The position numbers and the translations under genes are program-made. From Escherichia phage SECphi17, in sequence record LT960607: a stretch of DNA of 5,538 nt. One strand, written 5' to 3'. The notes beneath the pieces are model-generated. The model did no database searches, was not told the DNA's origin, and saw only the letters and a list, made by a program, of their open reading frames with translations. This document shows positions 2,210 through 5,538 of this stretch, in pieces. Every line of letters starts with the position of its first letter. The stretch's first letter is position 1.

Positions 2210-3496
2210 ATGTCTAATGTTCAAACTTCCGCTTCTCGCGATGCAATTGATTTATCACATCTGGTCTTCAACACTGGCGCTATTGGTCGTCTTAAAGTCG
2301 CGTCATGGACTCCTGTTATTGCTGGTGATTCTTTCCAGCTTGATGCTGTTGGTGCTTTACGCTTATCCCCTCTGCGTCGTGGCCTGGCTATTGACTCAAC
2401 TGTTGACTACTTCACTTTTTACATTCCACACCGTCATATCTATGGCAATGCATGGATTGAATTTATGAAAACTGGTGTCGCCGCCGCTTCTCTTAACCCT
2501 GTAACCACTGCGGCTTATGTTGACGGTGCTTCTTATCTCGGTGTTATTCCTTCTGCTGACAACAAGGTTCCTAAATTCCTGCACCAAGGCTATCTCAATA
2601 TTTATAATAACTACTTCAAAGCCCCTTGGATGGCTGACCGTACTGAGGCAAACCCATCCAACTTAAATGATGACGACCGTCGTCACGGCTTCCGTTGCTG
2701 TCATTTAAAAAACATCTGGTCTGCGCCTCTTCCTCCTCAAACGGAAATTACCCGCGCTATGACTACTGGCGCTACCTCCATTGATATTATGGGTCTTCAA
2801 GCTGCTTACGCCCAACTTCACACTGACCAAGAACGTGACTACTTCATGCAGCGTTACCGTGACGTTATCTCTTCTTTTGGTGGCAAAACTCACTATGACG
2901 CTGATAACCGTCCTCTTCTGCTTATGCGCTCTAACTTCTGGGCATCTGGCTATGACATTGACGGTACTGACCAAACTTCTTTGGGTCAATTCTCTGGTCG
3001 CGTCCAGCAAACTTTCCGTCACTCTGTTCCTCGCTTCTTCGTGCCTGAACATGGCGTTGTTATGACTCTTCAACTTGTACGCTTCCCGCCTACCTGTACC
3101 GAGGAAACTCACTACCTCGTTGGCAAAGGCGCACTAAGCTATACTGACCTCGCGGGTGACCCTACTCTTTACGGTAACTTACCGCCTCGAGAAATCGAAA
3201 TGAAAAATCTCTTCCGTGGCGCTGCTGGCTCTACTGAAAAAATCAAAATTGCCGAAGGGCAATGGTATCGCTATCATCCTTCTTACGTTGATGGCCAATA
3301 TCACAACCTTAAAGGCTTCCCGTTCATCCTAAACGGCCCAACCGGCAACATGGAAAATCGTGTACTGATTGACCATAAAAAATATGACGAATGCTTCCAG
3401 TCACTTCAATTAACCCATTGGAATGCTCAGGCTAAATACAATGTCACTGTATATCGACACATCCCAACCACTCGTGATAGCATCATGACTTCTTAA
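2210..3496 (+). CDS. F: Major capsid protein F (428 aa).
   Basis: ATG at 2210 with AAGGA at 2199-2203. Long stretches match recalled phiX174 F (LRLSPLRRGLAIDSTVD, HQGYLNIYNNYFKAPWM, GFRCCHLKNIW.APLPP, IDIMGLQAAYA.LHTDQERDYFMQRY, QTSLGQFSGRVQQT, PTTRDSIMTS). Confidence 0.97.
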   Translation: MSNVQTSASRDAIDLSHLVFNTGAIGRLKVASWTPVIAGDSFQLDAVGALRLSPLRRGLAIDSTVDYFTFYIPHRHIYGNAWIEFMKTGVAAASLNPVTTAAYVDGASYLGVIPSADNKVPKFLHQGYLNIYNNYFKAPWMADRTEANPSNLNDDDRRHGFRCCHLKNIWSAPLPPQTEITRAMTTGATSIDIMGLQAAYAQLHTDQERDYFMQRYRDVISSFGGKTHYDADNRPLLLMRSNFWASGYDIDGTDQTSLGQFSGRVQQTFRHSVPRFFVPEHGVVMTLQLVRFPPTCTEETHYLVGKGALSYTDLAGDPTLYGNLPPREIEMKNLFRGAAGSTEKIKIAEGQWYRYHPSYVDGQYHNLKGFPFILNGPTGNMENRVLIDHKKYDECFQSLQLTHWNAQAKYNVTVYRHIPTTRDSIMTS

Positions 3497-3507
3497 AGCC
3501 TATAACG

Positions 3508-3545
3508 TGACAGGGGGAAAAATTTTAATTTTTCGCCCCCTGTCA
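3508..3545 (+). other. F-G intergenic hairpin: 10-bp perfect stem (TGACAGGGGG / CCCCCTGTCA) enclosing an AT-rich loop AAAAATTTTAATTTTTCG. Candidate complementary-strand priming site and/or terminator TF.
   Basis: Inverted repeat 3508-3517 / 3536-3545 read directly from the sequence. The loop is nearly identical to the recalled phiX174 F-G loop (TAAAAATTTTAATTTTTG). Confidence 0.5.
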
Positions 3546-3595
3546 GGTTGAACAAGCGCAAGCGCGTTAGCTGCCTAACTATAAGGACTACTCAA

Positions 3596-4120
3596 ATGTT
3601 CCAGAACTTTGTTACTAAACACAATTCTCCTCAATTTACTACTACTATCACAAAGGCCGTCACTCCTGCCGCGTTGGCTCCTATTATTAATACGCCAACC
3701 GTTGCGCGTGACAATTTCTTTGTGAGCTTAACTACTACCGCCCTAACTTCTCCGGGCGGTATCTCTGCTGTTGTCGCTATCGACAACTCTTCTCATACCG
3801 ACAATCAGGTTATTTCTATTGCTGCCTCTCTTTCTACTACTGGCAGCCTAGTACCTGTTCTTTGTCGGTTTGAATCTGCTACTGTACCAACGGCTATTCC
3901 CGCATCTGCGGTTACTTACTACCCGTTGGGCTTTACATCATCTGCTACCGCTTTGTCTGTCAAGGACTGCGCTACTGTCTCTACTCTTTCCCGCTCTGGC
4001 AATCCTGTTTATGTAGGTATTGTCCTTATTGCGAAATCATTTGTCGCTGATACTGTATACGGCTCTATCTCAATTAATCAGGTTGACCAAGAAATCACAA
4101 CTCTGCAACCTCTCAAATAA
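3596..4120 (+). CDS. G: Major spike protein G (174 aa).
   Basis: ATG at 3596-3598 with AAGGA at 3583-3587. Conserved N-terminus MFQ.F..HNS and C-terminus ..VKDC.T......R..GN.VYVG.......LQPLK relative to recalled phiX174/G4 G; the middle is divergent. The track's TTG at 3548 would start translation inside the intergenic hairpin region and is rejected. Confidence 0.9.
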   Translation: MFQNFVTKHNSPQFTTTITKAVTPAALAPIINTPTVARDNFFVSLTTTALTSPGGISAVVAIDNSSHTDNQVISIAASLSTTGSLVPVLCRFESATVPTAIPASAVTYYPLGFTSSATALSVKDCATVSTLSRSGNPVYVGIVLIAKSFVADTVYGSISINQVDQEITTLQPLK

Positions 4121-4129
4121 GGAATCTCT

Positions 4130-5167
4130 ATGTTTGGTTTAATCGCTGGCGGCATCGCCTCTGCTCTTGCTGGTGGTTTAATGTCCAAATTGATGGGCGG
4201 CAATAAACAAGCCGCCCCCTCAACTCCCGGACAAGGCCTCTTCGCTACTCCTGAAACTACTATCTCTGCTGATAATGCAGGTATTCAATCTGTTATGCAG
4301 GGGCCTAACCCGCCCGGCCCTGACCAAGCGGCTCCTTCATTTACCGAATCTGCCGTCTCCTCATTTAAGGATGTCGGCAAAGGACTTCTCGATGGTACTC
4401 TACAAGCTGGCGGCTCTGCTGTTCAACAAGCTCTTCTTAACAAAATTGGCCTCGGTGGTAAATCTGCTTCTGATAAAGGCGAGGACACTAAGGATTATCT
4501 TGCTGCTGCGTTCCCAGAACTCAACCCGTGGGAACGCGCTGGCGCTGGTGCTTCCTCTGCTGGCATGGTTGACGCAGGTTTTGAGAATCAAAAAGAACTA
4601 ACCAAAATGCAACTTGATAACCAAGTCAAAATCGCTAAGATGCAAAACGACACGCAAAAGGATATTGCTGGTATCCAGTCTGTCACTTCTCGGTTAAATA
4701 CCAAGGATTCTGTGTATGCTCAAAACGAAATGCTCTCATACAATCAAAGAGAATCTATGTCACGCGTTGGCGCTATTCTCGAAAACACAAGCCTCACCAA
4801 ACAACAACAAGTCTCTGAAATTATGCGGCAAATGCTTACTCAGGCTCAGACCGCAGGTCAATATTTTACAAATGACCAAATTCAAGAGCTTACTCGAAAG
4901 GTTGGTGCTGATATTGATGCTGTTCGCGCTAACACTGAGCGCACCAATGTAGAAACAGGCCGCTCCAAACAAGAGCTACAAAACTCACGTTATGCATCTT
5001 CACAGGTCGGTAAAACAGCCAAGGATATCTCAAATGTCATTATTGATGCATCTTCTGGTATTGTTGATTATTTCCGTGGCATTGATAAAGCTGTTGGCGA
5101 CACTTGGAACAATTATTGGAAAGATGGTAAAGCCGACGGAGTAGGCTCCAACATGTCTCGCAAATAG
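4130..5167 (+). CDS. H: DNA pilot / minor spike protein H (345 aa).
   Basis: ATG at 4130 with AAGGA 8 nt upstream. Glycine-rich N-terminus [16 protein letters not shown] and long matches to recalled phiX174 H ([101 protein letters not shown]). Confidence 0.95.
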
Positions 5168-5225: not shown

Positions 5226-5538
5226 ATGTCTGTAGAACTCATCAAACCACTTGTAGAAGCTGCTGGCATGTCCACGCTTACACAATCTCCAAACCTCCGC
5301 ATCTGGAAACAAGTAAACACTCGCGTAAAATTACTTGAAGAAATCCTTACTTATTACACAAACGGAATCCGTCGCTGCCCTGACACTCAGGACTTCTACA
5401 TGAATCCAAATTCACAACTTGCAACCACTATTGCCTATCGTGCTCATCAAAAGGGACACAATCCAAAATTCAAACAATACCCTGATACATTCACCCTGGA
5501 CGATATCATTTCCGGTAAACCAATCCCTGAAACTGCCC
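5226..5538 (+). CDS. A: Replication initiator protein A, 5' portion (runs to window end; continues in frame at 1..1377 of the circular genome).
   Basis: ATG at 5226 is the first start after an in-frame TAA at 5208-5210. GGAGG at 5214-5218 sits 7 nt upstream. The frame stays open to the window end, and 5484-5538 is identical to 1-55, joining frame 1 of the A body. Confidence 0.85.
   Translation, partial: MSVELIKPLVEAAGMSTLTQSPNLRIWKQVNTRVKLLEEILTYYTNGIRRCPDTQDFYMNPNSQLATTIAYRAHQKGHNPKFKQYPDTFTLDDIISGKPIPETA
5484..5538. repeat. 55-nt terminal direct repeat identical to bases 1-55: overlap from linearising a circular genome, not a biological repeat.
   Basis: Exact identity of 5484-5538 with 1-55, read directly. 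Gene A reads through the junction in frame. Confidence 0.9.

Follow-up and report, generated by a model that had tools for sequence, protein, structure and literature searches.

How far does the major spike protein G of Escherichia phage SECphi17 (sequence record LT960607) depart from the G proteins of other Bullavirinae, and does this departure mark a host-range module different from that of phiX174? Each of the 12 vertex spikes on the F capsid consists of five G subunits, i.e., 60 copies per virion. Together with F and H, these 12 pentameric spikes engage the LPS core and give way for H-mediated DNA delivery, and G pentamers are known from structures for phiX174, G4, alpha3 and PJNS002 (PMC12328618). 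An earlier note on the SECphi17 sequence had proposed such a module from the divergence of G. As detailed below, the divergence of SECphi17 G is real, ordinary for the family and already known.

Genome context and identification of gene G

The window (the whole stretch of 5,538 nucleotides that was analyzed) begins and ends with the same bases, positions 1-55 and 5484-5538 forming an exact 55-nt terminal direct repeat. It is therefore a complete circular Bullavirinae genome of 5483 nt with a 55-nt assembly overlap. The full phiX174-type gene set is present: A (5226, wrapping across the junction to 1377; 544 aa), B (930-1292), K (1292-1456), C (1374-1634), D (1631-2086), E (1806-2093), J (2086-2172), F (2210-3496), G (3596-4120, plus strand) and H (4130-5167), the last encoding the pilot or minor spike protein. 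The DNA-binding protein J has 28 aa (MAKGKSYRRGSAGNKKGSRLWYVGGSQF), a length between the 25-26 aa of its counterparts in G4, ID2 and PJNS002 and the 38 aa of phiX174 J.

In a megablast search against 50,697 phage records, the Escherichia phages MG1, lillemer, Lilleput, Lilledu, Lilleto and Lilleen came first, with 92-100% of the sequence aligned at 93-94% identity; Salmonella phage PJNS002 (83% over 86%) and the ID2-type phages (79% over 78%) followed. This is in line with the published similarity of 92.6-94.5% between the Lille phages and SECphi17 (LT960607) (Olsen et al. 2020, PMC7552041). The six close relatives share the genome layout of SECphi17, and their G proteins (e.g., QBZ71494.1 of Lilleput and WQY91297.1 of MG1) likewise have 174 aa. 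Note that in the Lilleen record (MK629526, 3694-4236) G is annotated as a 180-aa protein that overlaps an extended F and in which the normal MFQNF N-terminus is absent in the alignment; H of Lilledu is annotated 17 aa short.

The G reading frame of SECphi17 is intact and runs from ATG 3596 to TAA 4118-4120, encoding 174 aa. Direct reading of the sequence reveals a Shine-Dalgarno-like AAGGA at 3583-3587 on the plus strand, 8 nt before this ATG. An in-frame TTG at 3548, which would extend the reading frame to 190 aa, was considered as an alternative start and rejected, as all homologues begin with MFQ or MYQ and AAGGA precedes ATG 3596. The protein matches the Pfam family PF02306 (Phage_G) with 100.4 bits (cutoff 25; E-value 1.3e-28) over its full length (protein residues 1-174 on profile positions 1-175 of 175), and phmmer aligns it end to end with the PDB chains 9k3n (PJNS002), 1gff (G4), 1al0/2bpa (phiX174) and 1m06 (alpha3). 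The F-G-H gene order is the same as annotated in Lilleput, ID2 and phiX174. Furthermore, in a set of 17 diverse G proteins that includes SECphi17 G, 21 residues are the same throughout (M1, Q3, H9, P24, D63, R91, F92, E93, P98, P110, D124, V138, G141, G156, Q162, E166 and L170-K174). From the reading frame, the Pfam match and the PDB-chain alignments, together with the AlphaFold2 and Foldseek results described below, we conclude with high confidence that 3596-4120 is the gene of the orthologous major spike protein G in a Bullavirinae phage of the SECphi17/Lilleput/MG1 type.

Degree and distribution of G divergence

SECphi17 G is 93-95% identical to the G proteins of Lilleput, Lilledu, Lilleto, Lilleen, lillemer and MG1, from which it differs at 8-12 residues, all of them at positions that are variable in the clade or in the family. 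The cluster of proteins formed around it at 90% identity has 16 members. Outside this lineage, no named G type is more than 47% identical to it (PJNS002 46-47%, ID2 41-42%, G4 40-41%, phiX174 39-40%, alpha3-like G 36%); metagenomic G proteins reach 75, 70, 66 and 54%. The description of SECphi17 G as strongly divergent from phiX174 G is thus borne out, and the high, uniform identity that would have spoken against it was not found. However, the proposed closer resemblance to G4-type G comes down to 41% versus 40% identity, and a neighbor-joining tree (see below) places SECphi17 G outside both.

How unusual is such a degree of divergence? G proteins from different Bullavirinae clades are in every pairing only 30-58% identical (e.g., 40% for phiX174 and G4, 44% for ID2 and G4), and the divergence of SECphi17 G is therefore typical of the family. 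Neither the clade nor the dissimilarity of its G protein is new: SECphi17 is in routine laboratory use, its G, F and H proteins match a 5538-nt NCBI record exactly, this G type is deposited in GenBank under several phage names, and Olsen et al. (2020, PMC7552041) have described the clade as having no gpG nucleotide similarity to recognised gequatroviruses.

The divergence is unevenly distributed along the protein. Identity was calculated segment by segment against 17 out-of-lineage G proteins. Conserved islands lie at the N-terminus (aa 1-12, MFQNFVTKHNSP; 3596-3631, plus strand; mean identity 0.70) and at the C-terminus (aa 156-174, GSISINQVDQEITTLQPLK; 4061-4117, plus strand; 0.67), the latter ending in the invariant LQPLK. 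The earlier note had seen clear conservation at these ends only, but three internal islands are also present, namely aa 63-75 (0.48), aa 91-99 (RFESATVPT; 3866-3892, plus strand; 0.76), in which R91, F92, E93 and P98 are invariant in the set of 17 diverse G proteins given above, and aa 122-141 (VKDCATVSTLSRSGNPVYVG, VKDC...GNPVYVG; 3959-4018, plus strand; 0.56) with the invariant D124, V138 and G141. Between the islands, identity drops to 0.22-0.35 (aa 13-62, 76-90, 100-121 and 142-155). The longest of these variable segments, aa 13-62 (3632-3781, plus strand; identity 0.26-0.35, pLDDT 76-96), comprises predicted strands at residues 15-22, 38-47 and 54-61 with loops; of the 24 positions at which members of the clade differ, it holds 8.

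The two peptides on which the idea of a compositionally biased middle had been based are indeed present, TTTITKAVTPAALAPIINTPTVA at aa 15-37 and ASLSTTGSL at aa 77-85. Thr, Ser, Ala and Val together make up 48.3% of SECphi17 G, and the protein is in this sense rich in these residues as claimed. As a distinctive trait the richness does not hold up: the sum is 35-48% in 21 other G proteins, with an average of ~42% in the 17 of them from outside the lineage, so that SECphi17 G lies at the top of the range with a z-score of ~1.7, next to an unrelated metagenomic G with 47.7%. Comparison with phiX174 G alone overstates the bias, as this protein, with 36%, is near the bottom of the range. The Thr/Ser/Ala/Val richness is accordingly a family trait of a small beta-rich protein, slightly accentuated in SECphi17 G.

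Compared with the G proteins of G4 (1GFF) and phiX174 (2BPA/1AL0/1CD3), SECphi17 G belongs to the same Pfam family and shares the conserved islands and the LQPLK C-terminus. It is 1-3 residues shorter, contains no Trp and more Thr and Ser, and has fewer charged residues (9% versus 12-14%).

Predicted structure of G

Short stretches like TTTITK and TPAALAPIINTPTVA, in a protein with 48% Thr, Ser, Ala and Val, could mean that the middle of SECphi17 G is a low-complexity, disordered or non-canonical insert in the G fold. An AlphaFold2 monomer model was built on an alignment of 17 diverse G sequences. The model has a mean pLDDT of 86, a pTM of 0.81 and ten beta strands. In blocks of ten residues, pLDDT is 90-96 across aa 21-160 with the exception of one block at 82, and low values are confined to aa 1-12 and 168-174; these low-scoring termini probably make inter-subunit contacts that are missing from a monomer model. 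A Foldseek search against the PDB matched the model to 9k3n, 1gff, 9k3m, 2bpa and 1m06 with TM scores of 0.82-0.88, and beyond these five Bullavirinae G structures it returned no PDB match with an E-value of 0.001 or lower. The nearest solved structure by E-value is PJNS002 G (PDB 9K3N; PQ479935; E-value 2.1e-17, TM 0.84).

SECphi17 G is thus predicted with high confidence to share the beta-barrel of the phiX174, G4, alpha3, PJNS001 and PJNS002 G proteins. The comparison with the phiX174 and G4 spikes that had been asked for points to the standard fold being kept, with TM scores of 0.85 and 0.88, respectively. As the pLDDT exceeds 90 with regular beta strands throughout the biased middle, and the structural alignments to solved G proteins span ~178-188 columns, i.e., the whole protein, this middle is by all indications of the model ordinary beta-barrel. 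There is also hardly any room for an insert, SECphi17 G being with 174 aa the shortest of the family and differing from other G proteins by indels of only 1-3 residues, and unrelated G types have a similar composition. As far as prediction goes, AlphaFold2, Foldseek and the family composition rule out a low-complexity or disordered middle, and we regard an insert as exceedingly improbable.

Evolution of G

G is the most divergent SECphi17 protein in comparison with each out-of-lineage relative. The identities to SECphi17 form a graded series: G 95, F 97, H 93 and A 95% for Lilleput; G 70, F 91, H 92 and A 93% for the metagenomic contig L013; G 46, F 78, H 83 and A 89% for PJNS002; G 41, F 68, H 71 and A 83% for ID2. 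PJNS002 has the closest backbone outside the lineage, yet its G protein is as distant as given above. This series fits a steady evolution of G at about three times the rate of F.

Within the clade, dN/dS is highest for G (0.23, compared to 0.12 for H, 0.08 for A, 0.04 for F and 0.01 for D), and at this value G is under net purifying selection. The 24 variable sites of the clade coincide with the segments that are variable in the family (Mann-Whitney p 9e-6). In deep mutagenesis of phiX174, detrimental substitutions amounted to 60.5% in G compared to 89% in F and D, and the sensitivity of G was focused on its interfaces and not on its core (bioRxiv 10.64898/2026.07.25.740675). The variation of G within the SECphi17 clade agrees with this tolerance. 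Among the virion proteins of the family, G would then be the one that evolves fastest and tolerates mutation best, which may account for the limited identity of SECphi17 G to its phiX174 and G4 counterparts. Putative islands of subunit and F contact (aa 1-12, 63-75, 91-99, 122-141 and 156-174) would be held fixed, and the remaining strands and loops would either drift or be selected by variation of the host surface. The divergence of G would in this way follow that of the genome, ~3 times as fast as F, until a structural floor of ~40% is reached.

An alternative to such steady divergence is a foreign origin: G, perhaps along with the 5' portion of H, would have entered the genome by recombination, with an unsampled Bullavirinae lineage as the donor. 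The genome is in fact a mosaic. In A, B, K and C it resembles G4 and ID2 (A: 85% to G4, 83% to ID2) more than phiX174 (A: 66%). The reverse holds for F, with 74% identity to phiX174 F and 64-68% to the F proteins of G4 and ID2, two proteins with 88% identity between them; the F tree groups the SECphi17 clade with PJNS002 and phiX174. The same backbone mosaic, with a G4/ID2-like A and a phiX174-like F, is present in PJNS002. The trees of the individual genes also disagree. In the neighbor-joining tree of G, the SECphi17 lineage stands outside a group of phiX174, ID2, PJNS002 and G4 (bootstrap of the split 100%), and the partner of PJNS002 G is ID2 G (94%), not SECphi17 G. By identity of A, F and H, the nearest relative of the SECphi17 lineage is PJNS002, a placement for which neighbor-joining bootstraps are weak (15-64); the place of the contig P0009 in the A tree should be disregarded, its A sequence being partial. 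Incongruence of the G tree with those of A, F and H, although not complete, makes it likely, as judged from these comparisons, that G was exchanged among lineages somewhere in the SECphi17/PJNS002/ID2 group. The basal place of SECphi17-lineage G itself could equally result from long-branch attraction to the alpha3-like outgroup.

Engineered hybrids between phiX174 and G4 G are also viable, albeit "extremely sick" in the wording with which PMC4627924 cites Doore & Fane (2015). Furthermore, the block 3497-3581 that directly precedes G matches ID2 throughout and lies between genes that are 42-68% identical to those of ID2 at the protein level (see next section). However, a donor of SECphi17-type G was looked for and none was found. 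The closest out-of-clade G proteins are graded in their identity (75, 70, 66 and 54%), and L013, the only one of these with a full genome, shares the backbone as well (A 93, F 91, H 92%). Across the 3' third of G, nucleotide identity to PJNS002 recovers little by little with no sharp boundary; at ~50% nucleotide identity, the signal is too saturated to place breakpoints. We therefore consider acquisition of G from an unsampled lineage rather unlikely and prefer steady, fast divergence of G in place.

The F-G intergenic region

The region between F and G contains a predicted hairpin at 3504-3549 (plus strand; ssDNA fold of -20.7 kcal/mol, z-score -4.8). The F-G region aligns at 77-79% identity with phiX174 nt 2305-2371, where the T_F terminator, the complementary-strand origin ori(-) and the PriA-binding hairpin are located (bioRxiv 10.64898/2026.07.25.740675). 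The corresponding region of G4 is longer and aligns poorly with that of SECphi17 (~23-33% in 60-column windows). In G4, the F-G intergenic region is the site of a primase-dependent complementary-strand origin.

The ID2 region is different in this respect: in blastn, the SECphi17 block 3497-3581 is identical to ID2 at 84 of 84 aligned nt, although for the flanking proteins F and G the identity to ID2 is no more than 68% and 42%, respectively. A fully identical block between two divergent genes suggests recent recombination between the ID2 lineage and the SECphi17 clade, with a possible breakpoint ~15 nt upstream of the G start.

The clade has been assigned to the genus Gequatrovirus (Olsen et al., PMC7552041). 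In line with this, the replication and morphogenesis genes of SECphi17 are nearest to those of G4-type phages, but neither its capsid protein F nor its F-G intergenic region is of the G4 type. The latter does not define the genus, as ID2, which has the same region as SECphi17, is itself classed as a Gequatrovirus. The comparison shows these "gequatroviruses" to carry a phiX174-type complementary-strand origin element.

Host range and the hypervariable segments of H and F

Five of the six close relatives (Lilleput, Lilledu, Lilleto, Lilleen and lillemer) were isolated on E. coli K-12 MG1655; for MG1, the host is given as "E. coli" only. MG1655 serves as a non-permissive control for phiX174 (PMC10368449), and the K-12 strains in a host-range panel were not inhibited by phiX174 (Evo preprint). 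As the clade was isolated on a host that is non-permissive for phiX174, a host range different from that of phiX174 is supported, if indirectly, and this part of the earlier proposal stands. Its attribution to G alone finds no such support.

In the simplest form of that attribution, SECphi17-type G would on its own suffice for recognizing the LPS core of K-12, where phiX174 uses that of E. coli C. The isolation of five of six phages with this G type from MG1655, on which phiX174 cannot grow, would fit, as would the binding of LPS by G pentamers in vitro (PMC12328618), and spike identity is commonly taken by authors as a proxy of tropism. However, to say that receptor and host range are determined by G claims too much: the phiX174 mutations found to overcome LPS-based resistance, 15 unique ones, are all located in F or H, and none in G (PMC10368449). 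The binding of LPS by the G pentamer of PJNS002, a phage of Salmonella with an rfaJ-truncated LPS core, is weak in vitro (PMC12328618). Moreover, the alpha3-like phage Lilleven was also isolated from MG1655 and has a G protein only 36% identical to that of SECphi17; infection of K-12 therefore does not need SECphi17-type G.

The remaining argument comes from H and F of SECphi17, parts of which are as divergent as G. An N-proximal segment of H (aa 21-80; 4190-4369, plus strand) is only 30-45% identical to PJNS002, ID2 and phiX174, in contrast to the 90-100% identity of H aa 121-345 to PJNS002, and it includes the position homologous to the phiX174 host-range site H A68. In F, the loop at aa 101-120 (2510-2569, plus strand) is 20% identical to PJNS002 (78% for F overall) and homologous to the phiX174 host-range positions F103 and F116; a second hypervariable loop at aa 361-380 (~3290-3350) is 55% identical to PJNS002. 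Taken together, the divergent segments of H and F contain or adjoin the positions homologous to F103, F116, F154, H68 and H91 of phiX174. Judged by sequence identity, H aa 21-80 and F aa 101-120 diverge as strongly as G does. Recognition of the K-12 core by G alone is thus unlikely, and the host-range "module", if there is one, would probably consist of G together with parts of H and F. A literature search for receptor data on SECphi17-type phages found none.

Implications for microvirus tropism

These observations can be combined in a tentative proposal, which we ourselves rate as more doubtful than probable. SECphi17/Lilleput-type G may represent a deep spike lineage outside phiX174, G4, ID2 and PJNS002 and may form, together with H aa 21-80 and F aa 101-120, a transferable set for K-12 LPS core specificity; the ID2-identical ori(-) block would then be a natural recombination junction at the upstream edge of this set.

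As a discovery, SECphi17 G carries little weight, its type being deposited, its dissimilarity published and its fold canonical. G identity alone is an unsafe proxy of tropism and should be used with caution. The value of the clade lies elsewhere: related backbones with different G, H N-terminal and F-loop sequences have been isolated on different hosts (the SECphi17 clade on K-12, PJNS002 on rfaJ-truncated Salmonella, ID2 and phiX174 on E. coli C), and the SECphi17 G clade is useful as a natural comparison set for engineering the tropism of microviruses.
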